Source of the DNA: Candidatus Uhrbacteria bacterium
GTDB lineage: Bacteria > Patescibacteriota > Patescibacteriia > GWA2-47-26
NCBI GenBank assembly: GCA_016187515.1
Contig: JACPJN010000009.1
Coordinates: forward strand, 132,891-196,890
Direction: 5' to 3'
DNA length: 64,000 bases
The notes below the pieces were generated by a model, which worked only from the letters and a program-made list of their open reading frames with translations, made no database searches and was not told the origin of the DNA. The stretch's first letter is position 1. Each line of letters opens with the position of its first letter. A program made the translations under genes and the position numbers. Positions 3,524-51,434 of the stretch are shown one piece after another.

Positions 3524-5872
3524 TCACAAGCGCAGCCGACGCAACAGTTGGGCGTTAAAGGCCACGATAACCGTGGAAAGCGACATCAATATTGCGGCAA
3601 AGGCCGGCGCCAGAATAATGCCGAGTGGCAGAAACGCGCCCGCGGCCGCCGGAATCGCAAAGGCGTTATATCCGGTTGCCCAAATTAAATTTTCCACCAT
3701 TTTCCGGTAAGTCGCCCGCGCGAGTTTAATAATCCGCACAATATCGCGCGGGTCGCTTTTGATTAGCACAATGCCCGCGGATTCGATGGCCACATCAGTG
3801 CCCGCGCCTATCGCGATTCCCACATCCGCCGCGGTAAGCGCCGGCGCGTCATTAATGCCGTCCCCGACCATCGCCACCCGCATCCCGCGCTTTTGCAGCT
3901 CCTGAACTTTCTCCACTTTTTGCTCCGGCAACACTTGCGCAAAATATTCATCAATTCCAAGCTCCTTTGCCACCCACTCCGCTACCGGTTTTGCGTCGCC
4001 GGTTATCATTGCCACTTTCACTCCCATATCATGAAGCACGTGCACTGCCGCGCGCGACTCTTCGCGAATAATATCGGCTACTCCGAATGCCGCGACAGTT
4101 TTATCATCAGCAATGAGATATATCACAGTTTTACCTTGTGCCTGTAGTACAGTAATGTCTTTTGACAAAAGTTCCATACTTGGAACTATGGAACTTTTTT
4201 CTGGAGACGCGGAAAGTAAATTTTCTCCTCCCACCCGCACCATTTTACCATTTACAAAACCCTCTACTCCACGTCCTGGCAATGCTTTTACATCCGCCGC
4301 TTTCGGTATTGTCAAGCCGCGCTCTTGCGCGGCCTTAACAATCGCTTTGGCAATCGGATGCTCGGACTCGCGATCCACCGCCGCCGCCAGCGCCAACAAT
4401 TCATTCTGCGCGGACTGTGAACTGTGAACTGATGACTGTGAACTCACTAGTATATCAGTGACACCGTATTCGCCACGGGTTAATGTTCCGGTTTTATCAA
4501 AAAGCACTATGTCAATCTTTCGCGCCAACTCCAGCGCCAGTTTCTCGCGCACCAGCAGCCCACTGCGTGCCGAAAGCGTAGTGGAAATTGAAGCGACGAG
4601 CGGCACGGCCAATCCCAGCGCGTGCGGACAGGCAATGACGAGCACGGCCACCACACGGGTCAGCGCTACCGCGATTCCGGCATCAAGCGCTAACCATGCC
4701 ACGACTGTAACTGCGCCCACCGTAACCGCGATAATTGTCAACACCAGCGCGGCTTTGTCCGCCAGCGCTTGCACGCGGCTGCGCGAGGCCTGGGCCTGGG
4801 CCACGAGCCGCATAATACCCGCGAGCGCGGTTTGCTCGCCGACTTTGGCCACGCGCACTTTAAGCGCGCCTTCGCCATTGATTGTCCCGGCAATCACCGG
4901 ACTGCCCGGTTTTTTGTCAACCGGTTTTGACTCGCCGGTAATCATGGATTCATTCACGCTGGAAACACCCTCAACAATTTCTCCGTCCGCCGGCACCTTG
5001 GTACCCGGCCGCACAAGAACAATATCACCAACACGTAATTCTGAAACCGGTACGATCTCAATACCTTCATTCATAACCCCCCTATCCCCCCTTATCTTAA
5101 GGGGGGTATTTGTTGTGTCTCCCTCCCTTAAGGTAAGGGAGGGCGGGGGTGGGTTATGCATTGCAATCCGCTCCGCCGTATCCGGTAAAAGCTTTGCCAA
5201 CTCCCGCAGCGCGCCCGAAGCATGTCCCACTGCCGCCATTTCAATCCAATGGCCCAAAAGCATGATCGTAATCAGCGTGGCAATTTCCCAAAACAGCGGC
5301 TCGCCAATTGGCCAAAACACCGTGAGCACGCTATACGAATACGCCACCGTTATAGCCAGCGCGATAAGCGTCATCATCCCGGGCAAACGATGCTTCAGTT
5401 CCGCAATCGCGCCCCGGATAAACACCCAACCGCCGTAGAAAAAAATCATACTCGCCAACGCGAGCGTCAAATACATGTGTCCTGGAAATTCCGGAAAGTG
5501 CACGCGGAACAACTTCTGTACCACGTCAGCGTACGCCAAAACCGGCAAGGTCAGCGCCAAACACACCCAAAACCGTTGCTTGAACATATTCACACTATGC
5601 CCCGCATGTCCCGACGCTTCGGTCGGGATCCCGACTTTACGTCGGGACTTGTCCACCAATTTGTCATTTCGAGGGAGCGCGGCAACCGAGAAATCTCTAC
5701 CGCCTTGCATACCACGGTGTAGAGATTCCTCACTACGTTCGGAATGACGAATTGGTTGCGGCCGATGATGGCTACAATAATAATGCATCACCCCTTGCGC
5801 GTCCTTTTCCGCATACTCGGCCACCATCCCGCATAATTCACATTTTTGTCCTTTAGGAATTTCGTGTTTCAT
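3524..5872 (-). CDS. copB: Copper-translocating P1B-type ATPase, CopB-like (CPH motif, His-rich N-terminus)
   Basis: DKTGTLT phosphorylation motif; CPH in the TM6 segment [11 protein letters not shown]; [10 protein letters not shown] hinge; N-terminal CxxC (CELCGM). Carries three in-frame palindromic inserts. Confidence 0.9.
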
Positions 5873-7100
5873 AATCTCTTAAGAGTTTAGCCACTCCCAG
5901 CGCGGTTCCATCGTCTGTGATTTGCCGGCGCACGTTGACTCCCGATACCTTCGCTTGTATGGAAACCATGCGGACATCACGCGTAATACCGCCGTCAATC
6001 ACCAGCGTACGCGGACGAATTGGCAGCTTTTTTAAATATCCATCCACATCTTTGGCAATATACGTGAGCGCCCTATCCAATTTATTGACATCATGTAAGA
6101 CCTTGTCTATTGCGGACCCGCTTCCTTCAATTTTTGCCTCCAGCGCGAATTGTGGACGCCGCGCGCCGGGCATAAGGGTGGTAAAAAACGGCTGCCTCAA
6201 CACATACTTCGACCCTAGTGATTGCACCAAAAACGTTCCTGTGCCATAAGTGACTTTGGTAGTACCTGGACTAACCCCTACTCCATACATACTGGCTTGC
6301 TGATCGCCGCATACCGCACGCACCGGCAAACGTGCGCCAACCACCTCATGGCGCAAAACACCGAATTTTGACTGTGATGGGCGCACTTCCGGCAGTATCG
6401 CGCGCGGCACACCAAATATCTCGAGCAACTCATCATCCCACTTTAAAGTACGGATATTATACAAAAGCGTGCGCGAAGCATTAGTCCAGTCAGTCAAATG
6501 CGGCCGGCCTTCAAGCAGATTCCATAAGATCCAAGTGTCCACGGTGCCGAAAAATAGTTCACCACCCCTAACCCCTCCTCGGCGAGGAGGGGAAACGATT
6601 CGCTTTCCTCCCCTGCCCGAGGGTAGGATTAAGGAGGGGTGGGAGCGATTGCTAACCACATTCCTTAAAATCCACCCCACCTTTGTCGCGGAAAAATACG
6701 GATCAATAGCCAGTCCGGTTTTACCGCGCACCTCGTCGCTAAGAGACGGACGCCGTCTCTTAGCGACGGCACACTCTTTCGCGGTCCTTTTATCTTCCCA
6801 AACAATCGCGGGATAAATCGGTTTTCCGGTTTTGCGATTCCACACGATTGCGGTTTCTCGCTGATTGGTAAGACCGAAGGCGCGCAGTGATTTTAGCGGA
6901 ACTCGGCTTGCCCGCACTGCAGTGCGCAGCACTTGTTTGCTGACTGCCAGGAGCTCGGAGGGCGATTGCTCAACGAATCCCGGCTTTGGATGCGTTTTTC
7001 TAATACGCGCATACGCGCGTCCCACAATTTCAATACTCTGCGAAAAAACCAAGGCCTTAATTCCGGTTGTACCTACGTCAAGCACCAAATAATATCTCAT
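5853..7100 (-). CDS. FGGY-family carbohydrate kinase (glycerol kinase-like) with in-frame GC-rich insert
   Basis: N-terminal YYLVLDVGTTGIKALVF, then TNQRETAIVWN and GTVDTWILWNL, all typical of GlpK/FGGY. The insert encodes SGRGGKRIVSPPRRGGVRGG. Confidence 0.7.
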   Translation of the reverse strand: MRYYLVLDVGTTGIKALVFSQSIEIVGRAYARIRKTHPKPGFVEQSPSELLAVSKQVLRTAVRASRVPLKSLRAFGLTNQRETAIVWNRKTGKPIYPAIVWEDKRTAKECAVAKRRRPSLSDEVRGKTGLAIDPYFSATKVGWILRNVVSNRSHPSLILPSGRGGKRIVSPPRRGGVRGGELFFGTVDTWILWNLLEGRPHLTDWTNASRTLLYNIRTLKWDDELLEIFGVPRAILPEVRPSQSKFGVLRHEVVGARLPVRAVCGDQQASMYGVGVSPGTTKVTYGTGTFLVQSLGSKYVLRQPFFTTLMPGARRPQFALEAKIEGSGSAIDKVLHDVNKLDRALTYIAKDVDGYLKKLPIRPRTLVIDGGITRDVRMVSIQAKVSGVNVRRQITDDGTALGVAKLLRDYETRNS

Positions 7101-8200
7101 AGCGCAGTATCGGCAAAAAATTTCTTAATCTCCTTGCAGGGGTCGGCGCCGCGGTATAACACGCGACACACCAGATTAAGCAGCGGCGCTTTTACTTTTT
7201 TGCGGCGCGCCAAATCGAAAAAAACTTTCGTGGCGGCAACGCCTTCATGAGTTTGACTGCTTTTCTGCCATACAAATTTGCAATGCCCTTCTTTACAAAT
7301 ACGCTCGCCCAAGGCGCGATTGCGGCCATCGCCTAACCCCGTAACCACCAAATCCCCCACCCCGGCCAATCCGTGGACCGTAATCGCTTTACCGCCAAGC
7401 GCCACAACCACCTGTTCCATCTCGGCAACCGCCAGAGTAAACATAAACGCCTTCATATTCATCGGCAAACCAATTTCGTGATATTTCGTGTCCGACCATC
7501 GGTATCCTTTCGTGGTCTTTCGTGTATAACCATCGCACATCCCGAGCGCGATCGCATAAACATTTTTAAGCCCTCCGCATATACCCACCCCTTTCCAGTC
7601 CGCGGAAACCGCCACCTTAAATGTGGAGGAGGTAAAGACATCGCGCACTAATTCACGCGCTTTCTTGTCCTGACTTGCCGCGACTACCGCGGTCGGTACA
7701 CCGCGGACCAATTCCTTGGCAATGGACGGCCCGGAAATAGTAACCACCCTACGACGCAGCGCCGCGGGCAATTCCGATTGCACAACTTCGTGCATGGTAA
7801 GATTAGTCTTGGCTTCCAATCCCTTTACGACATGCGCAATTACCAACCTCCGCCCCTCACCCTCCCCTCTCCCACGGGGAGAGGGTGGCCGTAGGCCGGG
7901 TGAGGGAATTAGGCACTGTGCCAACTTCCGCACCGTCTGGCGCACATACGGCGACGCGCACGCCACGATCACTAGTGCGGCGTTTTCCACCGCCCGTTCC
8001 ATGCTCGCCTCCGGCACAATATTCTTGGATAATTTCACTCCTGGTAAAAATCGTTCATTCTTTCCAGTTCGTGCGATTACCTCGACAGTTCGTGATTCAT
8101 AATCCCAAAGCGCGGCGCGATGTCCGCGCAACGCTAAAATCTGCGCCAGCGCGGTTCCCATATTTCCGGCGCCTAAAACCGTGGTATTTATTTTTGCCAT
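7097..8200 (-). CDS. gpsA: NAD(P)H-dependent glycerol-3-phosphate dehydrogenase with in-frame palindromic insert
   Basis: Rossmann motif TVLGAGNMGTALAQIL and a GpsA-like C-terminal domain. Insert encodes SPGLRPPSPRGRGEGEGRR. Confidence 0.85.
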   Translation of the reverse strand: MAKINTTVLGAGNMGTALAQILALRGHRAALWDYESRTVEVIARTGKNERFLPGVKLSKNIVPEASMERAVENAALVIVACASPYVRQTVRKLAQCLIPSPGLRPPSPRGRGEGEGRRLVIAHVVKGLEAKTNLTMHEVVQSELPAALRRRVVTISGPSIAKELVRGVPTAVVAASQDKKARELVRDVFTSSTFKVAVSADWKGVGICGGLKNVYAIALGMCDGYTRKTTKGYRWSDTKYHEIGLPMNMKAFMFTLAVAEMEQVVVALGGKAITVHGLAGVGDLVVTGLGDGRNRALGERICKEGHCKFVWQKSSQTHEGVAATKVFFDLARRKKVKAPLLNLVCRVLYRGADPCKEIKKFFADTAL

Positions 8201-9788: not shown

Positions 9789-10061
9789 TTATTTGTTATG
9801 CAGTTCAAATACCGCCAAAAGCTCCTTAATCGCTTTTTCTTCACTTTTCGCGTGCTTCATCTGGCGCGTTACATGGCGACGCAGGTGTTGCTCCAATAAA
9901 AGCACATTCATACTTTGCAAGGATTTCTGAATGGAAAGCGAATGACGGAGCAAGTCAATGCAATAGGTTTCGCTTTCAATCGCCCGCGTCAGTCCCCGCA
10001 TCTGCCCTTCCAAAATCTTTGCCCGATGCACCGCCCGTTTTTTCAGTTTCTGATCAATCAC
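9789..10061 (-). CDS. csoR: CsoR/RcnR-family metal-sensing transcriptional repressor
   Basis: ILEGQMRGLTRAIE...YCIDLL matches the CsoR family; about 90 aa; apparent GTG start. Confidence 0.75.
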   Translation of the reverse strand: MIDQKLKKRAVHRAKILEGQMRGLTRAIESETYCIDLLRHSLSIQKSLQSMNVLLLEQHLRRHVTRQMKHAKSEEKAIKELLAVFELHNK

Positions 10062-10062
10062 A

Positions 10063-10209
10063 ATTAGGAATTAGGTGAATTAGGTGAATTAGGTGAATTA
10101 GGTGAATTAGGTGAATTAGGTGAATTAGGTGAATTTGTCATTCCCCGCCCGTATCACAATCTCAATCAATCCAATTTTAGGAATTAGGTGAATTAGGTGA
10201 ATTAGAAAT
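10063..10209. repeat. Tandem 9-nt repeat (gaattaggt) x about 7, then a second block of about 2.5 units
   Basis: Direct read; lies immediately upstream of the csoR start. Confidence 0.9.
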
Positions 10210-10262
10210 TCTCAAATACCCCCCTCCCCTATTACCAATTCTATCACGCCGGTTATCCACAG

Positions 10263-12951: not shown

Positions 12952-13593
12952 CTATTCAAACACAATCCGAATTACATGATCCTTTGCCTCCGGTGTGTAC
13001 TGACCCACGTATTCCCGGAACTCCATATTTGCCTCACCGTTGACAAACATCTTCACCTGTCCAGGTTTTCCCGGCGTACACTCATCGCCATTTTTCTTAT
13101 CCATAATCCGATCGCGATCAAAGGAAATCCGATGCTTATCAAAGAAACGACCGAGTGTAATATCTTCTTTTTGAAGAATGCGCCCCTCAATGTGCCAGGT
13201 GTTATCGCCATGATGGTGATAAAGAGGAATGCCTACCATCTGCCCGCTTTTTGATCCAGGCAAATCGCGCTTCTCACCACATACGTCAATATCAATCTTG
13301 GCATGCCAATGCACCGGTTTATCCGTATAGGTCGTCGCGGCCGGAGTCGGGCCATTCGACGAGGTTGGCTTTGCGCTATAAATCACGGCGCCCACCACAC
13401 CGATACCCAACACTAAACTAATGACATGCCAGGCGTGAATCCGCCGCACTTTCGGCGCGCGCTCGCGCGCTTGTTCTGTTTTTTTAAGTAAACGTCGCTG
13501 TCGTCGCGTCATTGGTTGTTGATCCATATTTATTAGGCATTGTTGATTACAATTTGACTTCGATAATATCGCCGTCCTTAAATACATAGTCAA
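12952..13593 (-). CDS. Hypothetical membrane-anchored protein with His-rich segment (LYHHHGDNTWH)
   Basis: ORF only. Confidence 0.35.
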   Translation of the reverse strand: MTMYLRTAILSKSNCNQQCLINMDQQPMTRRQRRLLKKTEQARERAPKVRRIHAWHVISLVLGIGVVGAVIYSAKPTSSNGPTPAATTYTDKPVHWHAKIDIDVCGEKRDLPGSKSGQMVGIPLYHHHGDNTWHIEGRILQKEDITLGRFFDKHRISFDRDRIMDKKNGDECTPGKPGQVKMFVNGEANMEFREYVGQYTPEAKDHVIRIVFE

Positions 13594-14596
13594 GGCCTTG
13601 TACTGGTGATGCTCCGCCCACTACCACTTTAATGTGTTTCGGATCGTAAGTCAATCCCATACTGTCAAACCAAAACTTTAGCGGTACGCCAGTGGCATGC
13701 ATGTGCAAACGATTAAAGTTTGGTCCTTCCACATGGAGGAAACTTGAGCTTTTGCCATCATCATTGCCTCCCATACGATGCCCATACGGGGTAAGATCAA
13801 GTTCCTTGCCATTCTGAAGTACATGAAACTCTGCATGAATATGCGCTGACTGCAACAGCCCGATTTTTGCATCCGGATCCATGGTACACTCCATCATACC
13901 ACTTTCAATGCATTGATCAATGGCCATCCCGCACGCATCGCACGCTCCGTCGCCGTTTTTATCCATGAGTTCTTTGGCCTGGGCAATGTCGAAAAGGGTG
14001 AATTTCATCTGGCTCGTAACCCCCCTGTCCCCCCTTACCCTAAGTGGGGAATCGCTTTCGTCTCCTCCCCTTAAGATAAGGGGAGGTTGGGAGGGGTTAT
14101 GAGTCGCGAAAAACAGTCCCACCACCGCCACCACTCCCACCAACCCTCCCGCCACCTTCTTCCCCTGCTCCACAAAATCCACCACCCACCCGGTTTCCAC
14201 GCGTTTCACGATCAAATCTTTCAGATACCATCCAAGCACGCCCAGCACCAGCACTAATCCCACTGTTCGCGCGCCGGCAACCCACTCGCCGGCAAATGGC
14301 AATCCCGCCAGTAAAAGTCCGGCATTTCCAAACACGCCGCGTGTGGTAATGCAGCGCATCCTCATCCCCGCACGAATAAAAAGCAGCACACCAAATAATA
14401 CCACTGCCGCGATCCACAATGGCCACTGAAAACGATTTAAAAACAAAAGCGGCATGCCTTGGAGCGCAATGCCAAAAGTGGCTACGAGCGCGATAAGCGA
14501 AGTGCAGACATTATGACAAATCTGCCATGAACCTAAAATTGAGGCACAACCCGAGATTTTACTTCCGCGAGAGAACCAATTTGTTGAAATCTTCAT
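13547..14596 (-). CDS. Hypothetical membrane protein with in-frame palindromic insert (SPLRVRGDRGVT) and Cys-rich C-terminal domain
   Basis: Start trimmed to MKISTNWF at 14596; the track ORF extends upstream across a palindromic element and the trxB 3' end. Confidence 0.4.
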   Translation of the reverse strand: MKISTNWFSRGSKISGCASILGSWQICHNVCTSLIALVATFGIALQGMPLLFLNRFQWPLWIAAVVLFGVLLFIRAGMRMRCITTRGVFGNAGLLLAGLPFAGEWVAGARTVGLVLVLGVLGWYLKDLIVKRVETGWVVDFVEQGKKVAGGLVGVVAVVGLFFATHNPSQPPLILRGGDESDSPLRVRGDRGVTSQMKFTLFDIAQAKELMDKNGDGACDACGMAIDQCIESGMMECTMDPDAKIGLLQSAHIHAEFHVLQNGKELDLTPYGHRMGGNDDGKSSSFLHVEGPNFNRLHMHATGVPLKFWFDSMGLTYDPKHIKVVVGGASPVQGLDYVFKDGDIIEVKL

Positions 14597-14666: not shown

Positions 14667-15692
14667 CTATGGAACTTTTTTCTTATTTCTTGGGGGTATA
14701 GATTTAGGCGCGATAATCGGCAACGCATGCACCTCGCAGGCCATTCCACCGTGAACTCCCAGATCTTGATACGCCGAGGTGGCCGCCATCGCGCCTTGCG
14801 CGGCCGCAATAATATCCTGACGGAATGGCCCGGCGCCGTCGGTAATATCTCCTGCCGCGAATATGCCATCCACATTGGTTTTCATAAATTTATCCACATG
14901 GATATATCCTTTCTCGTCTAATTCCACCCCAAGTTTTTTTGCCATCTCATTGTTTGGCAACGCACCGATCTGCACGAATAAACCGCCTGCCTTGAGAACA
15001 TCCGACTCTTTATACGGCTTAGAAAGCCGCACACCTTCAAATTTGTCCGTGCCTAAAATTTCTTTTATCGCGGTGTTGTACAAAATTTCCGCCTTTCCGG
15101 TCTTTACGAGATTGGTCTCAAACCGATCCCAATTCACCGGCTCTGCGGTAATTTTGCCACCACGCACAATGAAATAAATCTTTGTCACGTATTCACCTGC
15201 CAGATTTGCGCCTTTCACGGAAGAATCGCCGCCGCCAACAATAATAATCTCTTTGCCTTTGTAAAGCGGCGCATCACAAGTCGTACAATACGAAATTCCG
15301 CGGCCGGTCAGTTCTTTTTCCTTGGGTAATCCCAGCCGCCGATGCCGCGCGCCCAGCGCGAAACAAATCGTCCGCGATAAAAGATGCGTGCCGTCCGTAA
15401 GTAGGAGATCAAAACAATGCTTTTGTCGAAGTACATCAATGACTTCTCCATCGCGCAGCTCCACACCGGTGGAGACCGCGTGATCTTCCATCTTTTGAAT
15501 AAGCTCATAGCCATCAATGCTCTTGAACCCCGGATAATTTTCAACTGTGGCCGCAATCGCGGTCTCCCCTCCGGGATCCTTGCCGCGCACCACCACGGTT
15601 TTCATCTTATATCGCTCAGCATAAATCCCGGCCGAAAGTCCGGCCGCCCCGCCGCCGATGATTGCGAAATCATACAATTTATCATCCGCCAT
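14667..15692 (-). CDS. trxB: Thioredoxin-disulfide reductase
   Basis: FAD motif DFAIIGGGAAGLSAG; redox CTTCD; NADPH motif IIIVGGGDS. Confidence 0.9.
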   Translation of the reverse strand: MADDKLYDFAIIGGGAAGLSAGIYAERYKMKTVVVRGKDPGGETAIAATVENYPGFKSIDGYELIQKMEDHAVSTGVELRDGEVIDVLRQKHCFDLLLTDGTHLLSRTICFALGARHRRLGLPKEKELTGRGISYCTTCDAPLYKGKEIIIVGGGDSSVKGANLAGEYVTKIYFIVRGGKITAEPVNWDRFETNLVKTGKAEILYNTAIKEILGTDKFEGVRLSKPYKESDVLKAGGLFVQIGALPNNEMAKKLGVELDEKGYIHVDKFMKTNVDGIFAAGDITDGAGPFRQDIIAAAQGAMAATSAYQDLGVHGGMACEVHALPIIAPKSIPPRNKKKVP

Positions 15693-18768: not shown

Positions 18769-19632
18769 CTACAGCCTTGGTTGCGGAAGAAATTGATTGA
18801 GATTCGCCTGAAAATAACGGTCCACTCCCAGCCACAAGGCGATTGCCCAGATCACGAGAATAATTCCGCCAACTTGTCGAATACGCGCCGAGGCGCGCGC
18901 AAATCCCTTGATGCGCAGCGTAAGCGCCCGGCCGCCGTAGCCGATTAAGAGCATGGGCACAGCCGCGCCAAGGCCGTAGGTGAAAAATAGCAAGCCGCTT
19001 TGGAATACATTCTGTGTATTTGCGGCAAAGGTGAGAATCGCGCCAAGAATCGGACCGGCGCACGGGGTCCACACCACGCCAAGGGTTGACCCAATTCCAA
19101 ACCCGCCCCAGAAGCCGTTGCCCCCTCCCCTCGCCCCTCCCACAGGTGGAGGGGAAATGTGGGATTGTTTTCCTCCCCTGATGGGAGGAAAATTTTCAAT
19201 TGTTTCCTCCCCCCTTGTGGGGGAGGATGAAGGAGGGGGGTTGCAACACGATCCACGCGCACTGATTTTCCTCCACACAAATGTCCCCCTCACCACCATC
19301 CACTCCCACAGCGCCGGCACGGCCAACGCCACCCCGAATAAAAACAAGAGCACAATAGAGGCCACGCGCAGCGTGCCTTTGGAAATTCCCAGTACATCCA
19401 GAAAAATCGCAAACGCCGTGCCAAAAATGGTAAACGTCACCACGAGTCCAGCCACAATTCCAAGCGGCCGCCACTTACTTGTGCCCAAAGAACCGCCCAA
19501 AATCGCCGGAAGCACCGGCAAAAGGCAAGGCGCGGCAACGGTCAGCACCCCGGCGGCAAAAGAAAGAGGGAGAAGAGAAAACACAAAATGACAATTTCTA
19601 ATTGACCTAATTGCTCTAATTATTCTAAACAA
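18769..19632 (-). CDS. CcdA/DsbD-family transmembrane thiol-disulfide transporter carrying a ~46-aa in-frame GC-rich insert
   Basis: AAPCLLPVLP and VWTPCAGPILG match CcdA Cys motifs. Insert encodes CCNPPPSSSPTRGEE...GGARGGGNGFWGG. Confidence 0.65.
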   Translation of the reverse strand: MFRIIRAIRSIRNCHFVFSLLPLSFAAGVLTVAAPCLLPVLPAILGGSLGTSKWRPLGIVAGLVVTFTIFGTAFAIFLDVLGISKGTLRVASIVLLFLFGVALAVPALWEWMVVRGTFVWRKISARGSCCNPPPSSSPTRGEETIENFPPIRGGKQSHISPPPVGGARGGGNGFWGGFGIGSTLGVVWTPCAGPILGAILTFAANTQNVFQSGLLFFTYGLGAAVPMLLIGYGGRALTLRIKGFARASARIRQVGGIILVIWAIALWLGVDRYFQANLNQFLPQPRL

Positions 19633-19750
19633 ATCTCAATTCCCAATAACCAATTTTGGGATTTTGCGCCTCAGGCGCATCCGCCTTGGGCGTGAGGTGC
19701 TTGGACATTTCTTAGGTCAATTAGGATAATTAGGTTAATTAGGTTAATTT
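19601..19750. repeat. AT-rich degenerate repeats (ctaattg / aattagg units, inverted arrangement)
   Basis: Direct read; promoter region of the ccdA-like gene. Confidence 0.7.
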
Positions 19751-20274
19751 TACAACACCTGCTGCACTTTCTGTCTCAACTCTTCTTCGGAGTGATCTCC
19801 GTAGAACCGATCCACGGGGTTTCCGCTTTTATCAAGCAACACATAACTATGCTGATAGTTGATGCGATACTGCCGCATGAGCGGCTGATTATCATCCACA
19901 TTTACCCGCACGCCCATCACGGCCAGATTATCCTGCCGGGCGCGATTAAAAAACGCTTCATTAATCGGCTCTTGCCCCCGGCAGGTTCCGCACCAGTTCG
20001 CATAAAAGTAGAGAAGCGTGGCGTTACCGCTCGCCAGCGCTGCACTCAATACTTCCGGCGTGTACTCTTTATAATTCTCGGTCGCGGTAAACGGAATTTT
20101 TGGCCCGCCCAGCGACGGCTCCCCTACCACGGTGGGTAAATCGGCCCCGGGTGTTCCCGCATAGGGCGCTGGAGGCGAATTTCCCCGAGAGGCCCAAACC
20201 ACTCCGCCAATCACAATCACCGCCAGCACTCCACCCACTGCATAAATTAGATTTTTTTGAATTTTAATCTCCAT
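19750..20274 (-). CDS. Thioredoxin-family thiol-disulfide oxidoreductase (TlpA/ResA-like, WCGTC)
   Basis: Signal anchor and the motif LYFYANWCGTCRGQEP. Confidence 0.7.
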   Translation of the reverse strand: MEIKIQKNLIYAVGGVLAVIVIGGVVWASRGNSPPAPYAGTPGADLPTVVGEPSLGGPKIPFTATENYKEYTPEVLSAALASGNATLLYFYANWCGTCRGQEPINEAFFNRARQDNLAVMGVRVNVDDNQPLMRQYRINYQHSYVLLDKSGNPVDRFYGDHSEEELRQKVQQVL

Positions 20275-23761: not shown

Positions 23762-24580
23762 TCAAGTGATGTCGTGCTGATGCTCTCCCCAAGAGCAAAA
23801 TCCGCACTGACTATGATGCGCCGGCGACTGATCGCTCTGCAGTAGTCGAGCGGCGTTTTCGAATAATTGCCGAGCGCGCTTTATACTGGTTTCCATCCGT
23901 TTGGGCGTTATTTCAAACTGCACGACTCCATTCTCGCGCACTTCAATCGGGTGATAATACACTAACCATCCCACTCCTTTGGTTTTATAACCATTCTCGT
24001 GCAAAAGCCACTCGTAAATATCTAACTGGTGCTGATAAAATCCGGAAGAATCCTCTTTTGGCGCGTACCCGCGGGTTTTGTAATCAAGCGGTACGTAATA
24101 GCGTGCCAAATTCCTTTTACTGCTCCCCTCTCCCCCGTGTGGGAGAGGGCTAGGGTGAGGGGATTCAGTAACCACCAAACAATCATCCAAAAGTCCGATG
24201 AGTTTCGTGTTGAGTTTTTTATCAAAATAGCGCAGACCACCAGTGCGCGCGCGCCAGCCATTCAGTAATTTCTGGTCAGCGAGCAGCTTCCCCTCCACTT
24301 TTCCGCGGATTTCCGGCGGTAACCCTTCCTTTGTTCCGCGAAACTTATCAAAGTAAGTTTTTATAACACCATCCATTCCTCCCGGAAGTGAAGGGAAAAT
24401 GGTTTTTGGACGATGCACGCCCATTTTAAGCTGTAACCAAAAACACCGCGGACATTCTTTAAAAAGCGAGAGCGTGGAGGCGGAAAGCTGGATAAATCGT
24501 CCAACCTCACGGTCATTGCGAGGAGCTTTCATTGCTCCGCCAAGCGGTAACCTTCCATTCGTTCCCATAGGGTTATTCAT
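23762..24580 (-). CDS. PD-(D/E)XK nuclease superfamily protein with Cys cluster (Cas4/RecB-like fold), carries in-frame palindromic insert
   Basis: N-terminal CPRCFW; LLDDCLVV...VPLDYK fits D...ExK; C-terminal CGFCSW. Insert encodes SPHPSPLPHGGEGSS. Confidence 0.5.
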   Translation of the reverse strand: MNNPMGTNGRLPLGGAMKAPRNDREVGRFIQLSASTLSLFKECPRCFWLQLKMGVHRPKTIFPSLPGGMDGVIKTYFDKFRGTKEGLPPEIRGKVEGKLLADQKLLNGWRARTGGLRYFDKKLNTKLIGLLDDCLVVTESPHPSPLPHGGEGSSKRNLARYYVPLDYKTRGYAPKEDSSGFYQHQLDIYEWLLHENGYKTKGVGWLVYYHPIEVRENGVVQFEITPKRMETSIKRARQLFENAARLLQSDQSPAHHSQCGFCSWGEHQHDIT

Positions 24581-24900: not shown

Positions 24901-26103
24901 CTATTGCGTAGGTATATACTGCCATGGATTAAGCCACTGGTCAAGTTCTGTTTTTGATTTCACATATCCACGAAGATCCAGACGCGTACCTTTATGAATT
25001 CCGAAGTGCAGGTGTTTGCGCTCGCCATCGGTCTCGCTCGTGCCACCCGCACCCAACACACCAATTATGTCACCGGGCGCAACATATTCACCTACGCCCT
25101 CTTTCTCCCCCTCCTGGAAAGGGCTCTCCCCTTTTTTCTCCCCCTCTCCCCTTGTGGGAGAGGGCGGGGGTGAGGGGTCAATTTTCAAATGCCCATACAC
25201 CACCGTAACCGCTTGATCACCGAGCACGCACTCCTGCACTACTACTCCCCCATAGCCATCCGCAGTGCGTTTTTCACGGATCGTCCCACCACAGAACGCG
25301 CGCACCTCCACGTCCCGATCCTTTTCTTCATCCGACACTTCAAAATCCACCGCAGTATGGTAACCGGAAAAACGTTCGGGCTGCACCGGAGAATTTTCTG
25401 GAGCAACTTTCAGTCCAAACGGCTTTTTGGTAACGCGCGCGGCGGCACGATCGATCGGCGCACTGAAACTCACGCGATCATTGTGGAATTGAATGCTTTG
25501 GAAAAATTTTTCAAACTCCTCTTTGGGGAGATCTGGATTGCGTCCGAACACGTAAAATACGCCCGGACTGTTCTTTGCGAAGCGCACATCCGTAACCTCA
25601 TGAGTTTCATTTCGCCAGGACGGCTGATATGGAAAATCCGCTACCCCTTTTTTCTTACGAATCGTGTAGCGCACGGCAGCGTGTCCCTGCGCTTCCAACT
25701 GTGCGCGCTCCAAAATATCCACGGTACGCAGGGTAAGAAAATCGCTCGCCTCAAAATAACGGATAAAAATCTGGGAAAGCTCCCGCGCGGGCATTGCCGC
25801 CTGCACCGGTCCATAGATATTCAGCGCTTCAATCTCCGGCACATATTCCGCCTGCCATGTACTCGGAAGCTCGGCGGAAAATCGAAACACCGGATTAAAC
25901 TCCGAAAAATCTACTCGAATTAAAGCAGACGATTGTTCTCGTGTCGCTTCTTCACTCTCCGGCAATTGTCCCAAATTCTCACGGCCGTGAGAATTTGGGA
26001 CAATTAGAACTGGGGTTGTAGTGGTTTTCCCTTGCTCTTGTGGCTGCCCCGCACAGCCAGACCCGAGCAAAATAATGACTATAAAAAGTAAAATAAATCT
26101 CAT
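24901..26103 (-). CDS. M23-family metallopeptidase lipoprotein with in-frame GC-rich insert
   Basis: Lipobox GSGCAG; M23 HxH (HLHFGIH). Insert encodes SPPPSPTRGEGEKKGESPFQEGEKEGVGE. Confidence 0.8.
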   Translation of the reverse strand: MRFILLFIVIILLGSGCAGQPQEQGKTTTTPVLIVPNSHGRENLGQLPESEEATREQSSALIRVDFSEFNPVFRFSAELPSTWQAEYVPEIEALNIYGPVQAAMPARELSQIFIRYFEASDFLTLRTVDILERAQLEAQGHAAVRYTIRKKKGVADFPYQPSWRNETHEVTDVRFAKNSPGVFYVFGRNPDLPKEEFEKFFQSIQFHNDRVSFSAPIDRAAARVTKKPFGLKVAPENSPVQPERFSGYHTAVDFEVSDEEKDRDVEVRAFCGGTIREKRTADGYGGVVVQECVLGDQAVTVVYGHLKIDPSPPPSPTRGEGEKKGESPFQEGEKEGVGEYVAPGDIIGVLGAGGTSETDGERKHLHFGIHKGTRLDLRGYVKSKTELDQWLNPWQYIPTQ

Positions 26104-26777
26104 AAAAATTTCTTTAGTTGTTTTTTATTAATCGCGCCCTCCCGCAGTATCTTGGGAGGACTCACCGTAAGATCCAGTACCGTGGAAGGCACTCGGACTG
26201 AAGTGGAACCGGCATCCAACACCAGGTCTACGCGCCTAAGCAAAGCCCGTGAAATATCGGAAACGCGCGTGGGTGGCTTCTCGCCGGAAAAATTTGCCGA
26301 GGGCGCGGCCAGCGGACCGGCCGCGCGAATGAGCGCCAGCGCCACCTTGTGCGCCGGCATCCGCACCGCCACTGTTTTCACCCTCCCCTTCGGTTGAATA
26401 AAAAGTTCCATACTTGGAACTATGGAACTATTTAATTTACCCAATACTAAATCCGGAAGAGCTTTTTGCGCATGAAACACAAGAGTCAAAGGTCCTGACC
26501 AAAATTTACGCACAAGCGCACGCGCCACGCTTGGCACATCACGCGCGAGTATATCAATCGTGGATTTTTTTGATATATGCACAATCAGCGGCTTTTTTTC
26601 CGGCCGCCCTTTTATTTTAAAAATCTTCCGCACCGCGCGGGCATTAAACGCATCCGCCCCCAGCCCATACACCGTCTCGGTCGGAAAAACCACCAACCCG
26701 CCGCGGCGAATAATTTCCGCCGCATGCGCAATCACCTTCGAATCCGGCCTTTGCGCCGATATTTTTACAATCTTCAT
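26100..26777 (-). CDS. tsaC: L-threonylcarbamoyladenylate synthase (YrdC/TsaC domain) with short in-frame palindromic insert
   Basis: VVFPTETVYGLGADAFNARAVRKIFKIKGRPEKKPLIVHI. Insert encodes [11 protein letters not shown]. Confidence 0.8.
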   Translation of the reverse strand: MKIVKISAQRPDSKVIAHAAEIIRRGGLVVFPTETVYGLGADAFNARAVRKIFKIKGRPEKKPLIVHISKKSTIDILARDVPSVARALVRKFWSGPLTLVFHAQKALPDLVLGKLNSSIVPSMELFIQPKGRVKTVAVRMPAHKVALALIRAAGPLAAPSANFSGEKPPTRVSDISRALLRRVDLVLDAGSTSVRVPSTVLDLTVSPPKILREGAINKKQLKKFL

Positions 26778-26779
26778 AT

Positions 26780-26900
26780 CAGTCCCCTCCCCTTAGATTA
26801 AGTGGGGTTGGGTGGGGTTACGCCTGACCGCTTGCCTGCTTGTCCGCCTCTGGCGGGCCTTTGGCACGGCCTCTGGAGGGAAACGGAGAACAGAACTTAT
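26780..26900. repeat. GC-rich mosaic palindromic element, intergenic
   Basis: cccctccccttagattaagtggggttgggtgggg plus gtccgcctctggcggg, shared with the 29290-29320 element. Confidence 0.7.
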
Positions 26901-28610: not shown

Positions 28611-28745
28611 GAGCGACAACCACTCCTTCTCCCACCCCCTCTAACTCCCCCTCGGGCAGGGGGAGAAACCTCCTTGAAAAGGAGGGGGGACTTTTTAATT
28701 TCCCCTCCTCTTTGAGGAGGGGTTAGGGGTGGTGAGAGAGTTCTT
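28611..28745. repeat. GC-rich mosaic palindromic element (ccaccccctctaactccccctcgggcagggggagaaacctcc; cccctcctctttgaggagggg)
   Basis: Direct read; a related copy sits at 29228-29290. Confidence 0.75.
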
Positions 28746-29094
28746 TGATAATCCCGGCGATTACCTCGCCAACATTCTCACATACATCATTGTCGGTAAA
28801 TCGAAGCACGCGAATTCCTTGGGCTTCAATGAACTTCTGCCGTTGTGCATCCCGCCGCTTCGCTCCCTCCTGATAATGACTATCCCCATCCAGCTCGACG
28901 ACCAATTTTACCCTGGGACAATAAAAATCGACCACATGAGGGCCGATTCCTTGCTGCCGACGAAATTTATACCCTTCCACATTACTCCCTCGCAGATAGT
29001 ACCAGAGAATTTTCTCACTCCGTGTCATTCGACTACGAAGTTTTTGACGCGTGGATTTTTGTGCGTTCGGGTTAAACAATTTTACCATAACCAC
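28723..29094 (-). CDS. DUF559 (Vsr-like) endonuclease-domain protein
   Basis: GYKFRRQQGIGPHVVDFYCPRVKLVVELDGDSH...RDAQRQKFIEAQGIRVLRF matches the DUF559 pattern. Confidence 0.75.
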   Translation of the reverse strand: MVMVKLFNPNAQKSTRQKLRSRMTRSEKILWYYLRGSNVEGYKFRRQQGIGPHVVDFYCPRVKLVVELDGDSHYQEGAKRRDAQRQKFIEAQGIRVLRFTDNDVCENVGEVIAGIIKELSHHP

Positions 29095-29330
29095 CCCTTA
29101 ATCCCCTCCTTGGAAAGGAGGGGAAATCTTAACCACCCCTTAATCCCCTCCTTGGAAAGGAGGGGAAATCTTAACCACCCCTTAATCCCCTCCTTGGAAA
29201 GGAGGGGAAATCTTAACCGCCCCTTCTCCCACCCCCTCTAACTCCCCCTCGCCTGCCCGCCTCTGGAGGGGGCAGGGGGAGAAACCTCCTTGCCTGTCCG
29301 CCTCTGGCGGGGAAAGGAGGGGAAATCAAA
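29095..29330. repeat. Three tandem copies of a 42-bp hairpin unit (cttaaccaccccttaatcccctccttggaaaggaggggaaat), then a GC-rich palindromic segment
   Basis: Direct read. Confidence 0.85.
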
Positions 29331-35293: not shown

Positions 35294-36619
35294 CTATTGA
35301 GCCGGCGCTGGCACAGGCGCGGGCGCGGTTTCCCCAAAGGGATTGGCTCCCTCTGGTTGCGCCGGTTTTTCAAGCGCCTCGAATTTTTGCTGTAGCCGTT
35401 CAATGCGCTCCAAAACATTGCCCGGCACGGCGCGGCGCTTGCGTTCACTGTCAAAAATCAAATTAAACATTTTCTGTCCCAGCTCGCGCTGGATCGCTTC
35501 CATGGTCTCGCGCGCCACGCGGTATTCTCCGTCCCGTAAGGCCTCTTTAACCGGTATTAACAGATCATCCAGCTGCGTTTTAAGTTCCGGATCTTTAACG
35601 CGGCGAAGCGGCTCAATAAACCCGCGCATCATCTGCAGCGCACCGTTTACGTCGCCGGGCCAGCCGGGCTCATGAAACGCGTCCTGAAGAATACCGCGCG
35701 CATCCTCATACTCTCCCGCTTGATAAGCCGCTTTGGCTTCCGCGTATTTGGCGGCAAAATTCGCCATGATCGTATTGCACTCCTCCCGGCTAAACACCTT
35801 ATCCACCCATTTCTGTTTACAAAGATTCTTGGCGCGATTCAGGTCGCGCAAAACATTATTAAGCTCCTTCGGGAGTTCCACGGCCTGCCGAATCCGATTG
35901 ATCTCTTCCCAAAACTCTCCGGTATCTCCGCACTCTTCTCCCTCGAGTACGTCTTTCATGGCATCGTTATCCGTAGCCGCGTTTAATTGCGTCTGACACT
36001 GGGTTAGGCGTTCCTTAATCGCGTCCAGCTTAACCAGTTCATCTTGAGAACCTTTAAGGCGCACCAGTTGCTTGCGCACTTTCGCTGATTCCCGCAACTG
36101 ATCGCGCCACTCGCGCAGCCGGTCTTGTTTCCACCGCGCGGTATCTTGCCCCTCACGCTGCTCATGATCATCATCCTTCATCTCCGGCCTCGACTCGCCC
36201 GGACCCGCGTCCTTTAATTCTCCTTGCGGCGGATAATTACTGCATGGGCCGGGCATCTCCACTCCATTTACTCGACAGGTCTCCTTTACCGGCTCTTTCA
36301 CTTCCAAACCCGGCTGCGGGACCGGTGGCTGCCCTTCTACGGCGGGGGGCTGGGGTTGCACTGGCTGCGCGGGCTGTGTAAGTTCGGCGGACGGCGCTGG
36401 CGGCGTCACGGTTTGCCCTTGATCTTGGGCAATCAAATACCCGGGCTCCGGAAGCAGCTCGGATAAAATCGCCCCCTGCTGCTGCGCCGCGCTACCCAGC
36501 TGGATTGACCCGGAAAGCAGAAATAACGCGGTGGCGGCCAAAACGCTGCCCGCGATTTTAATCGTCTTTTCCTTTACGTCGCCACGATGATAGTGGCAAA
36601 AATAACAGAGATTGCGCAT
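35294..36619 (-). CDS. Secreted/anchored coiled-coil protein, hypothetical
   Basis: N-terminal TM, Pro/Gln-rich linker, long charged helical region. Confidence 0.45.
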   Translation of the reverse strand: MRNLCYFCHYHRGDVKEKTIKIAGSVLAATALFLLSGSIQLGSAAQQQGAILSELLPEPGYLIAQDQGQTVTPPAPSAELTQPAQPVQPQPPAVEGQPPVPQPGLEVKEPVKETCRVNGVEMPGPCSNYPPQGELKDAGPGESRPEMKDDDHEQREGQDTARWKQDRLREWRDQLRESAKVRKQLVRLKGSQDELVKLDAIKERLTQCQTQLNAATDNDAMKDVLEGEECGDTGEFWEEINRIRQAVELPKELNNVLRDLNRAKNLCKQKWVDKVFSREECNTIMANFAAKYAEAKAAYQAGEYEDARGILQDAFHEPGWPGDVNGALQMMRGFIEPLRRVKDPELKTQLDDLLIPVKEALRDGEYRVARETMEAIQRELGQKMFNLIFDSERKRRAVPGNVLERIERLQQKFEALEKPAQPEGANPFGETAPAPVPAPAQ

Positions 36620-36625
36620 ATAACT

Positions 36626-36686
36626 TAGAGTTTAGAGTTTAGAGTTTAGAGTTTAGAGTTTAGAGTTTAGAGTTTAGAGTTTAGAT
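36626..36686. repeat. Tandem 8-nt repeat (agagttta) x about 8
   Basis: Direct read; between the coiled-coil gene start and the GT4 gene end. Confidence 0.9.
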
Positions 36687-36687
36687 A

Positions 36688-37818
36688 TTATAGCACACCC
36701 TTGTCCACAAGCGAAGTGTATAACTTTTCGGTCTCCGCCACCACTTTATCCCAGTCAAAATACCGCTTAATAAAGCCCAAGGCCAGCTTCCCTTTCTCCC
36801 GCACAATTTCCGGGTGATTGATTAGTCCGACAATCTTTTCGGCCAGATCGCTGACGTTCCCCACTGCAAATGGCACTCCGGAATGGTCAATGGCTTCCAG
36901 ATTCTCCGGGATATTGGAAATCAAGACGCATTTTCCGAAACTCATGGCTTCCAAAATCGTCAGTGATAATCCTTCGGACTCGGAAGGATGCACATAAAAA
37001 TAGGCGTGCGCGTAAAGCTGCTTCAGCTCGTCTCCGGTTTGATAACCGGTAAAAATAATCCGGTGATCTGCGGCTGCCAACTGTTTCAGGTACGCGCTGT
37101 AATCCGCGGTAAAAGAAGGCGCCCCCACAATAACCAGCTTCATCTCGCCCTTGACTTCCTCCGGAACTTGTCGGTAGGCCTCGATCAGATAGTGAATTCC
37201 TTTATGTTTAATCAGACGCGCCACGGTGACCAAATAACCATTTTTCTGCAGTCCCCATTGTTTAAGCGCCGCGCTGGATTCCATTTTGTGAATTTCTACC
37301 GCGTTGGGAATATAATGAACATTTTTTTTGTATGCTTGCCGGCAATATCTCACAATTGAATGTGAGACGCCAATCGTGGTATGCGGAATATGCGTGGCAC
37401 ACCACTCTCCGATGCGCAGCACGAACCGCGCCCAAAACCCCCACTTGGCATGAAACCGATCAATGGAATGAAACGTCACTACGATTTTAGCGCGCGTAAA
37501 AAGCCGAGGAATCCAGGATAAGAGCGCCGGGCCGACACCGTGGAAATGGATGATGTCGTACCTAGAGCGTAGAGCATAGAGCGTAGAGCATAGCGTAGAG
37601 GAAATCGTGCCTAAGTGTTTGGTTGGAATTTCCGGCACGCGCGTGAGTTTCACGCCATTCCACATATCATCTTTGGTGGCCACATATCTTTTACGCACAA
37701 ATACCGTAACCTCATGCCCGCGCTTCGCCAAGCGCGTAGATAATTCCTCCACATGCCGCTCCACTCCCCCGTCCCGATAGAAAGGTATGGCCTTCTGTCC
37801 AATGAATGCTATTTTCAT
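36688..37818 (-). CDS. Family 4 glycosyltransferase (GT4)
   Basis: C-terminal EGLSLTILEAMSFGKCVLISN resembles the GT4 E-x7-E region; N-terminal Rossmann-like fold. Confidence 0.8.
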   Translation of the reverse strand: MKIAFIGQKAIPFYRDGGVERHVEELSTRLAKRGHEVTVFVRKRYVATKDDMWNGVKLTRVPEIPTKHLGTISSTLCSTLYALRSRYDIIHFHGVGPALLSWIPRLFTRAKIVVTFHSIDRFHAKWGFWARFVLRIGEWCATHIPHTTIGVSHSIVRYCRQAYKKNVHYIPNAVEIHKMESSAALKQWGLQKNGYLVTVARLIKHKGIHYLIEAYRQVPEEVKGEMKLVIVGAPSFTADYSAYLKQLAAADHRIIFTGYQTGDELKQLYAHAYFYVHPSESEGLSLTILEAMSFGKCVLISNIPENLEAIDHSGVPFAVGNVSDLAEKIVGLINHPEIVREKGKLALGFIKRYFDWDKVVAETEKLYTSLVDKGVL

Positions 37819-49373: not shown

Positions 49374-50978
49374 TTATTGAGTTATTACCGGCAGTTCCTC
49401 CGCGGCCACCTCCTCTGCCGTCGTCTCTTCAAGCTGCTCCGCCGCTTCGGTCTGCGCCGCGGATTCTGGCGCGGGCGCTGGCTCCACTACTGGCGCGGGT
49501 TCCACCGGTACCGGCGTTTCCACTGCTGGCCCGGCTTCCTCCCCCTCTCCCTCGGCGGGAGAGGGCGGGGGTGAGGGGGCGCTGACACTATCCCCCTCTC
49601 CCCCGGCGGGAGAGGGTTGGGGTGAGGGGGCACTTGCCTCGCTTGATTTACTTGCTTCACTTGATTCACTGCTGCCACGCGGGGTCCCGCACGCGCCGGG
49701 CCGCACCACTACTCCGCCATTGCGCAGCGACACGCATGAAGGCGAACCGGTTACCTCATCATGCAGTGTAATCCCGGTCGGCCGCTCCGGACTTCCCACC
49801 GTCAAATCCCGCACTTGCAGCTGGCCATCTTGCGAAATACTCCAAACCCCGGAAATTCCGGCAATGCGTCCGACCTCAAGGATCGCGTAGCCATTCATGT
49901 TCAGATTATGCTCCGCCACCGTTATCAAACCGTCGGATCCTTGACTGGCGGTCAACTCATCCGGGCCATGCCAGTAGAAATTATTGACCAACATCATAAT
50001 CTGGCCATTTCCGCTCTCCCAATTTTCAAGCGCGATACCGATAACCTTCCCTGAACGCGCGGTCTTCATCGCATGACCCGCCAATGACGAGCTTACCAAA
50101 TAATCACCAACGCCAATCGCGCCGTTTTCATCGGTAACTTTGACCGGCACGCGCCCGGAAAGAGCGACGGGCAAAGGATGACGGCCCTGTTTTTGTATAT
50201 CACCGCCAATGGTCTGGACCGGTGATCCGGAAATCACGCCGAATATCTTCGCGCTATATGATTCTTGGGACTTCCCGAGTATGGCAATGGTCTCTCGTCC
50301 ATTTTCCTCGGCAATAAGACCGGTAAACGGATCAACTCTCGTGGCCTCATACGTAAAATAGGCATCGGTCAGCGCCACCACGTCCCCCACCTCTACATTT
50401 TGTTCGGTTTCATACCATTCCGCAAGGTCGCCGGCGCCATTATTGCAAGCCACGAGCGCTTCGGTCGTATCGGAAGCCGCGTCAAGATCAGATCCGGAAT
50501 GACATACCCCATTGGTGGTCGCGGTTGAATTAAAATTCACCGACGTTATTCCGGCCGGTGTTACGGTAAACTTGCTGTTATTCACGTTAATCGCGTTATC
50601 CCAACCGCTGCTGATAAACAGACCGGATGAACTCACCGTACCGGTTCCGGCTTCCGTCATACTGCCAACACTAATACCGGTGGCGATGAGATTATTGGTG
50701 GTGGAAGTGGCCGTGATATTGGCGATATTTAGAACAGTATTCGTGCTGTTGTTGGTGGTGGAGGCAAAAGTGGCATTGAGGTTTAAGAGGTTAGAACCAG
50801 TAGCGCCTTCCGCCGTAATCAGGGTAATGTTGAGCGCGTCCACATTGGCAGTGGCGGTGGTGTCGCCCGAGCCGATCGTGACCAGATCAGCTGTCGGGGT
50901 CGCATCGCCATCCAGATTAATGGTTTGTCCGTCAATAATGGCCTCACGCCTCCCGAGGCCAAAAACAGATCGCCCCAC
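49374..50978 (-). CDS. C-terminal part of a giant repetitive Thr/Ser/Gly-rich surface protein (frame-disrupted); contains two in-frame GC-rich hairpin inserts
   Basis: Repeats LNITLITAEGATGSNLLNLNATFASTT; inserts encode SAPSPQPSPAGGEGDS and SAPSPPPSPAEGEGEE. Confidence 0.45.
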   Translation of the reverse strand: MGRSVFGLGRREAIIDGQTINLDGDATPTADLVTIGSGDTTATANVDALNITLITAEGATGSNLLNLNATFASTTNNSTNTVLNIANITATSTTNNLIATGISVGSMTEAGTGTVSSSGLFISSGWDNAINVNNSKFTVTPAGITSVNFNSTATTNGVCHSGSDLDAASDTTEALVACNNGAGDLAEWYETEQNVEVGDVVALTDAYFTYEATRVDPFTGLIAEENGRETIAILGKSQESYSAKIFGVISGSPVQTIGGDIQKQGRHPLPVALSGRVPVKVTDENGAIGVGDYLVSSSLAGHAMKTARSGKVIGIALENWESGNGQIMMLVNNFYWHGPDELTASQGSDGLITVAEHNLNMNGYAILEVGRIAGISGVWSISQDGQLQVRDLTVGSPERPTGITLHDEVTGSPSCVSLRNGGVVVRPGACGTPRGSSESSEASKSSEASAPSPQPSPAGGEGDSVSAPSPPPSPAEGEGEEAGPAVETPVPVEPAPVVEPAPAPESAAQTEAAEQLEETTAEEVAAEELPVITQ

Positions 50979-51346: not shown

Positions 51347-51434
51347 ATTGGCAGTGGCGGTGGTGTCGCCCGAGCCGATCGTGACCAGATCAGCTGTCGG
51401 GGTCGCATCGCCATCCAGATTAATGGTTTGTCCG

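Follow-up and report, generated by a model that had tools for sequence, protein, structure and literature searches.

Two genes in a 64,000-nt stretch of DNA from a Candidatus Uhrbacteria bacterium (contig JACPJN010000009.1, positions 132,891 to 196,890, hereafter called the window) contain copies of the same palindromic element, here called family B. The first gene (3524..5872, minus strand) encodes a 782-aa heavy-metal ATPase of the P1B class and CPH type, similar to CopB, and the second (13547..14596, minus strand) a conserved membrane protein of 349 aa that is rich in Cys and His and belongs to no Pfam family. The two copies are placed at 5072..5158 and 14015..14101, have 87 nt each and can be aligned without gaps, with 20 of the 87 positions differing between them. 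In the minus-strand reading frames of their hosts both copies give HNP...RGDRGV(M/T), a peptide of 29 residues which corresponds to residues 239-267 of CopB and to HNPSQPPLILRGGDESDSPLRVRGDRGVT in the second protein. A previous sequence-only reading of the window had described two copies of one element at 5085-5155 and 14018-14098; both copies are present and the two peptides that it quoted are correct in the translations of both host open reading frames (ORFs), but its bounds were slightly too narrow on each side and have to be widened to those given here, and the length is 87 nt instead of the approximately 75 bp first proposed.

On the plus strand the element is composed of a tail and left outer arm (CRTAACCCCCC-TRT), hairpin 1, a spacer of 14 nt, hairpin 2 and the right outer arm (NNN-GGG(N)GGGTTATG). 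In copy 1 hairpin 1 is found at 5086..5106 (CCCCCCTTA-TCT-TAAGGGGGG, equivalent to 14029-14049 in copy 2, 97% of cells paired), its consensus across copies being CCCCCCTTA-YCY-TAAGGGGGG, and hairpin 2 at 5121..5143 (CCCTCCCTTA-AGG-TAAGGGAGGG, equivalent to 14064-14086, 100% paired). In copy 2 the stem of hairpin 2 is preserved by two compensatory changes, with the pairs changed on both sides. The variable spacer between the two units (5107..5120) is the seat of most of the differences between copies. The ends of the element are terminal inverted repeats (CRTAACCC...GGGTTATG) that also form the outer stem, in which the left arm at 5072..5082 (CATAACCCCCC) has its partner in the right arm at 5147..5158 (the GGGGGTGGGTTATG end). 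In the four full copies available, two in the window and two from metagenomes, this stem has 11 pairs with 97.7% of cells paired, and all of them share the end motif CRTAACCC, which begins as CGTAAC in three copies and as CATAAC in one, that is with GTAA or ATAA and not GTAG.

When the two hairpins and the outer stem are taken together, 98% of cells are paired across the four copies, which confirms the double hairpin with TTAAG cores that had been described from the sequence. RNAfold favours a single long hairpin (-49 to -55 kcal/mol, z -4.8 to -5.8; about -50 to -55 kcal/mol for copy 1). Since each hairpin is a palindrome in its own right, the one-hairpin and two-hairpin descriptions are equivalent and either fold is possible. 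Moreover, the left unit has 75-80% identity to the reverse complement of the right unit in all four copies, each unit of approximately 37 nt consisting of a tail, a stem of 9-10 bp and a 3-nt loop (a C-run/TTA...TAA/G-run hairpin). This makes the element an inverted doublet of a unit of about 37 nt, which is the architecture of the dimers of repetitive extragenic palindromic (REP) sequences and of REPINs (REP doublets forming hairpins).

A covariance model built from the four full 87-nt copies attributed 109 bits to copy 1 and 101 bits to copy 2, against 39.6 bits for the next distinct site of the window. The 20-mer AACCCCCCTRTCCCCCCTTA, from the left part of the element, has two matches in the window where 0.03 would be expected from shuffled controls, and the 27-nt core has also two matches against 0.00 expected. 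In the whole window the Rfam scan at gathering thresholds returned five tRNAs only, and in a permissive scan of 4900-5300 nothing was matched except microRNA-like hairpins below the threshold, no known RNA family fitting the element.

The two host proteins

In the more distant CopB orthologues (P0004-P0029 and P0090) the LLPDTAE segment is joined to the ...VPVSEL strand by a short loop with no insert, whereas the CopB of the window has about 29 additional residues in this loop. The alignment with CopA of L. pneumophila (3RFU) breaks at the same place, with residues 97-237 of CopB corresponding to 81-231 of the chain, residues 272-781 to 237-735, and residues 238-271 facing just five residues (232-236). 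The insert is thus not a feature of P-type ATPases, in agreement with what had been supposed for it. When the exact 87 nt are removed in silico the loop is left with 13 residues and is equal in length to that of the insert-free orthologue P0008 (AELLNPQGLAETV). The segment is located at the N-terminal edge of the actuator domain, before TGES (about residue 312) and the CPH motif (415-417), which is the position upstream of CPH indicated in the earlier reading. AlphaFold models residues 239-268 as coil with a predicted local distance difference test (pLDDT) score below 50, flanked by strands 232-236 and 271-275; the actuator domain therefore has the turn of its first beta-hairpin enlarged by the insert.

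A second and unrelated palindrome was observed in frame near the N-terminus of CopB (approximately 5655-5755, minus strand, residues ~42-71), where it encodes a peptide of 30 residues. It has inverted ends (ACCAATTCGTCATTCCGA...TCGAAATGACAAATTGGT) and a fold of -41 kcal/mol (z = -3.8), and related RHSERSEES and PRNDK pieces are found in P0004 and not in the other orthologues. The exact 782-aa CopB sequence is absent from a collection of 15 billion proteins, while the product of the neighbouring gene is present there. The deposited annotation of CopB may have a different start or a pseudogene call, possibly due to the two palindromic inserts.

The product of the second host gene is identical to MBI2552755.1 (HYW17_05655) from Candidatus Uhrbacteria. 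Its insert is part of the linker that connects the last predicted membrane helix to the Cys/His-rich C-terminal domain. The protein has invariant clusters of Cys and His (CDxCGM...C...C, HxH, HxH) and may be a metal-handling protein.

Copies in other genes and genomes

The strict 27-mer was found in three stretches of a metagenome collection, which correspond to two full 87-nt copies and one half element, the latter in a contig that is the same as genome locus L041, from a Chloroflexi metagenome-assembled genome (MAG). The two full copies, which were located by a DNA pattern blind to the reading frame, are in a TatD-like ORF and in a DHH/DHHA1 ORF, with the orientation and frame of those in the window. 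The four full copies (in CopB, the membrane protein, the TatD-like ORF and the DHH-family ORF) are all of 87 nt without gaps and all in one frame. As only two of the six reading frames of the element are free of stops, this shared frame is weaker evidence than it appears. The suggestion that a single mobile element was inserted twice in the same frame is supported in what concerns a family present in unrelated genes, whereas its frame argument is weak when taken alone.

At the protein level, a word-index search with the peptide and its flanks gave two candidates, of which P0145, a metagenomic fragment of 70 aa, is a fifth in-frame copy seen as peptide. Searched as a profile against 1.84 billion representative proteins, the peptide returned 32 hits at E <= 1e-3, a number that is too low because each 50%-identity cluster is represented by one protein. 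In the hits that were inspected the segment lies within RsmA, ATP synthase gamma, MurB, a GT1 glycosyltransferase, CysRS, an M24 peptidase and RmlD, proteins that have nothing else in common with those of the window. All the hits or cluster members with a named source are from Candidatus Uhrbacteria, with the exception of one labelled only "bacterium". Related HNP...RG.RG peptides were identified in MurB (MBI2552671.1), in an O-antigen ligase (MBI2552150.1) and in CysRS (MBI2552832.1), whose accessions fall in the same MBI2552xxx block as MBI2552755.1 of the window, and we infer that these copies belong to the same MAG as the window. The expectation that further copies would be found outside the window was thus borne out by the two metagenomic copies, the fifth peptide and these related peptides. 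In a Candidatus Uhrbacteria genome, and in metagenomic genomes related to it, one sequence has been copied into genes that are unrelated to each other. A search of viral contigs with the 20-mer gave no match. A PrmC cluster was considered as a case of filled and empty sites and rejected, its members of 363 and 350 aa differing merely in the start codon.

The differences among the four full copies are concentrated outside the stems, with 7 variable columns in 60 stem columns against 18 in 27 unpaired ones (Fisher p = 4e-7). By codon position the variable columns are distributed as 6/9/10, with no third-codon bias, and in five of the six pairs compared the non-synonymous codon differences are more numerous than the synonymous. 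The variation being outside the stems and without third-codon bias, it follows that the constraint is nucleic-acid structure or recent copying and not a selected peptide. Among the four copies the peptide core PL(K/R)(I/V)RGDRGV hardly varies. Since all copies have a length of 3n and no stop, reading through by the ribosome is to be preferred over removal.

The sites themselves were found to be occupied by different palindromes in related organisms. Each of the three closest CopB orthologues (P0001-P0003, loci L058, L059 and L060) has a different one in the loop after LLPDTAER, namely a perfect hairpin of 36 nt in P0001 (-38 kcal/mol), a double hairpin of about 90 nt of the CCCTCTCCC type with an outer stem in P0002 (-69 kcal/mol), and in P0003 a dimer of about 51 nt with GTAG...CTAC ends (-34 kcal/mol) which is similar to a classical GTAG-tagged REP dimer. 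The left junction is identical in the window and in P0001, being placed after the same ATG codon. In the linker of the second gene at least five different repeat-type peptides exist among the orthologues: P0125 has a single hairpin with the same TAAC...GTTATG ends, P0123 another hairpin, P0122 a CCCTCTCCC double hairpin, and P0126 and P0127 yet another repeat peptide, the more distant orthologues having ordinary linkers. This turnover may reflect the existence of few insert-tolerant positions that are hit repeatedly, or a palindrome already in place may act as the favoured target, or as a template that is overwritten. Since the palindromes differ at the same codon positions, it seems that an existing palindrome attracts the next element or is overwritten by it. 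REPs have been described as inserted within small palindromic targets, and different REPs are found near the same recB site in two Xanthomonas species (PMC3733652). P0002 has a further insert of the PSP...GEG type in the nucleotide-binding region (alignment columns ~675-700).

Outside this lineage, the 20-mer is found in 51 stretches of representative genomes, mostly from Candidatus Poribacteria, where chance would give approximately two according to our own estimate with uniform base composition. The remaining carriers are Nitrospinota, Geobacteraceae, Desulfobacterales, Zixibacteria, Chloroflexi and one Microcoleus, and some of the loci (e.g. L029, L010, L050) have the complete doublet, including the same ends. 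The cross-phylum occurrences may result from horizontal spread of one unit or from convergence of low-complexity hairpins, and the cross-phylum matches are kept apart from family B because C-run/G-run hairpins could converge. In Poribacteria (e.g. L006 and L043) a single unit, AACCCCCCTRTCCCCCCTTATCAAGGGGG, is read as (A/T)ITPLIRGDRGV, which contains the RGD tripeptide, and forms a conserved linker in a large paralogous family of proteins of 650-1300 aa. These proteins look like secreted ones, with an N-terminal hydrophobic segment and an apparent C-terminal secretion-sorting domain as judged by eye.

Origin of family B and relation to known elements

In-frame palindromic repeats are a textbook example of selfish DNA inside protein-coding genes, known mainly from Rickettsia and from a few REP-rich genomes. 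We consider it likely that family B is a small non-autonomous palindromic element of this kind, similar to REP dimers and to the Rickettsia palindromic elements (RPE), and that it represents a new family of a known phenomenon. According to this proposal, copies would persist only where they are harmless, which would be between genes or, when in frame, in surface loops and in linkers that join domains. Copies inside genes would be translated as a Pro/Gly/Arg-rich and probably disordered loop of 29 residues, which in CopB would be the turn of the first beta-hairpin of the actuator domain and in the second gene the linker after the last membrane helix. The element probably spreads through a folded single-stranded hairpin and a nuclease or transposase acting in trans, as the REP-associated tyrosine transposase (RAYT) does for REPINs (PMC3337134, PMC3733652).

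Several observations weigh against this proposal. Among the 56 ORFs of the window scanned with Pfam there is no transposase, RAYT, Y1 or parent insertion sequence. The four copies show no target-site duplication and no conserved flanking target, and their flanks share no direct repeat; moreover the ends of the element do not have the GTAG or CGTC tag of the REP families described. The strict family is low-copy, with the two copies in 64 kb and the three metagenome stretches, one of them a half element. No polymorphism between filled and empty sites was seen that would point to current mobility. In addition, the AlphaFold model of CopB is poor overall (mean pLDDT 64), and translation of the insert is something that we infer from the reading frames.

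Some of these points would also fit an origin of the palindromes at the sites themselves, through slippage, switching of template or repair primed by hairpins at fragile C-run/G-run sites, or a spread by gene conversion between existing sites only, with no transposition involved. Exactly the same codon position holds different palindromes in orthologues, the gene 2 linker exists in single- and double-hairpin versions with the same ends (P0125 and the window), and neither a transposase in those 56 ORFs nor a target-site duplication was found. However, near-identical 87-nt sequences with specific spacers and ends are present in unrelated genes that have palindrome-free orthologues, which implies delivery to a naive site at least once per host gene, and gene conversion requires a pre-existing homologous target. 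We therefore regard an origin in place as unlikely. There is far less reason to suppose a coincidence of low-complexity sequence or an assembly artefact of C-run/G-run DNA; several families of such hairpins do fill the window and the 20-mer also occurs in distant phyla, but shuffled controls predict practically no matches, the model scores exceed 100 bits, both host reading frames run through the element, and it is present in independent assemblies (NCBI, JGI, ENA and Logan), all of which leaves this explanation with almost no weight.

The segment could also be a conserved or lineage-specific functional feature of the proteins, such as an RGD-containing loop selected at the protein level and distributed by divergence or module exchange without any selfish DNA. 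The near invariance of the peptide core in the four full copies would fit this idea, as would the similar TPLIRGDRGV conserved in the large family of Poribacteria proteins that by eye are read as secreted. Nevertheless the segment is missing from the more distant CopB orthologues and from the solved CopA, its hosts are unrelated enzymes with nothing else in common, and entirely different palindromes occupy the same place in close orthologues. Furthermore, it is the stems and not the codons that are conserved, with compensatory changes maintaining them; the third codon position shows no bias, and non-synonymous differences mostly outnumber synonymous ones. A selected peptide is in our view very improbable. 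Slightly more improbable still is an intervening sequence, that is a hairpin of 87 nt removed after transcription in an intron-like or processed manner and never present in the protein. The hairpin is indeed very stable (about -50 kcal/mol) and the loop length of the orthologues is restored by deleting exactly 87 nt, but the four copies known as DNA have 3n nucleotides, are free of stops and use the same one of the two open frames, which excision would not enforce, and no Rfam family matched, introns included. Bacteria are not known to have splicing of this kind.

As a REP-dimer/RPE-like element, family B has its closest counterparts in the RPE and in the intragenic REP dimers. The latter are GTAG- or CGTC-tagged, encode 20-30 residues and in some genes are found twice (Di Nocera, Rocco and De Gregorio 2013, PMC3733652). 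Both are made of inverted stem-loop units with a spacer, can be folded separately or as one long hairpin, and are located inside known genes. They differ in the tag, since family B ends in CGTAAC or CATAAC and has C-run/G-run stems with TTAAG cores; CGTC-tagged REPs, which include RPE-4 and RPE-6, have the end tag CGTC where family B has CGTA or CATA. The phyla named as hosts of GTAG repeats in PMC3733652 do not include Patescibacteria, the candidate phyla radiation (CPR), to which the host of family B belongs.

RPE are Rickettsia-specific, have approximately 150 bp (Ogata et al. 2000, reviewed in PMC10969869), and their insertions were judged compatible with protein fold and function (PMC10969869). 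They resemble family B in being palindromes placed in frame in many unrelated genes, in their case housekeeping genes, where they encode a family-specific peptide; they are set apart, by description and not by sequence comparison, by their length (~150 bp versus 87 nt) and by the different phylum. The turnover of palindromes at orthologous sites is a feature of the family B sites in contrast with RPE.

REPINs are extragenic by definition, have a GTAG head and a cognate single-copy RAYT gene flanked by repeats (Bertels and Rainey; PMC3337134, PMC8049555). Like family B they are inverted doublets of an imperfect palindrome of 20-40 nt with a spacer, form a long hairpin, and are non-autonomous and multi-copy. 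Unlike them, family B has its four full copies all inside ORFs (intragenic REPs are nevertheless documented, PMC3733652) and no cognate RAYT was seen within the 64-kb window. The MITEs of bacteria (miniature inverted-repeat transposable elements), such as Correia, Nezha and ERIC, occasionally form in-frame fusions with host ORFs (PMC10969869). They share with family B the small size, the terminal inverted repeats, the absence of coding capacity of their own and the in-frame fusion with the host, but make a target-site duplication, which none of the four copies has, and no parent element with the same ends is present in the window.

Our literature search found no description of such elements in CPR/Patescibacteria. 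The same phenomenon is now observed in a genome of Candidatus Uhrbacteria, and no new mechanism is revealed; the main points of interest are the density of inserts in a reduced genome and the palindrome turnover at orthologous sites. For the annotation and structure prediction of CPR proteins the consequence is that many Pro/Gly/Arg-rich "lineage-specific insertions" are repeat-encoded and should be masked. In addition, the elements could mark recent genome dynamics in organisms that are unculturable.

In what concerns the enzyme, just one nuclease-like gene is associated with arrays of hairpins, an ORF with DUF559 (Vsr-like endonuclease fold) at 28738-29091 on the minus strand. On one side it has a multi-hairpin block (28618-28740) and on the other three tandem repeats of 42 nt (29088-29225) and a hairpin, the gene being bracketed by a 37-nt direct repeat (28618-28654 and 29215-29251, 95% identical). 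The final three bases of an element terminus, GGTGGTTATG, are the ATG of this ORF. At locus L017, from a Dehalococcoidia MAG, a DUF559 homologue (1721-2044) has a half element of family B at a distance of about 45 nt. DUF559 as the mobilising enzyme is a lead and not evidence. It is tempting to suggest that the double-hairpin families are one system which homes to palindromes in coding loops and replaces them by means of a small nuclease other than RAYT, with DUF559 as the candidate, yet we consider this unlikely; if true, it would constitute a new element-enzyme pair and a steady source of surface loops in reduced CPR proteomes.

Other hairpins, repeats and neighbouring genes

The window is rich in C-run/G-run hairpin elements of several families, and at least seven of the genes in the 64 kb have hairpin inserts. 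The site with 39.6 bits in the covariance model is a related double hairpin of another family (6558..6643, minus strand), placed in frame in an FGGY carbohydrate kinase with the peptide ...HPSLILPSGRGGKRIVSPPRRGGVRGGE. Hairpin inserts were also found in frame in GpsA (~7855-7905), in a DsbD-like protein (19125-19245), in a PD-(D/E)XK nuclease (24120-24170), in an M23 peptidase (25095-25185) and, at 49534-49631, in an ORF of 534 aa with no Pfam family (49374-50978). The peptides encoded by these other inserts are Pro...Gly-rich, for example PSPTRGEGE and PPIRGG.

An intergenic half element, comprising hairpin 2 and the right end (...GGGGTTACG), is located at 26783..26822, directly upstream of a Sua5/YrdC-family gene (26100-26777) which has its start at 26777. 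Related units therefore occur in 5' leader regions also.

The neighbourhood of the two host genes (3082-23260) includes genes for a DoxX-like protein, CopB, a thioredoxin-reductase-like protein (14667-15692), a DUF3179 protein, an ArsR-family regulator, a DsbD-like protein and thioredoxin-fold proteins. From these gene assignments, both hosts of family B look like members of a metal and redox gene neighbourhood.

Repeats of other kinds were also observed. AT-rich intergenic tandem repeats, unrelated to the C/G hairpins, are present at 10059-10212, 19709-19758 and 36611-36700, two of these distant loci having the 9-nt unit GAATTAGGT and the third the 7-nt unit TTAGAGT. A direct repeat of 190 nt (50754-50943 and 51257-51446, 92% identical and 503 nt apart), followed by a repeat of 88 nt (78%), is located where the minus-strand ORFs 49374-50978 and 51435-53198 adjoin.

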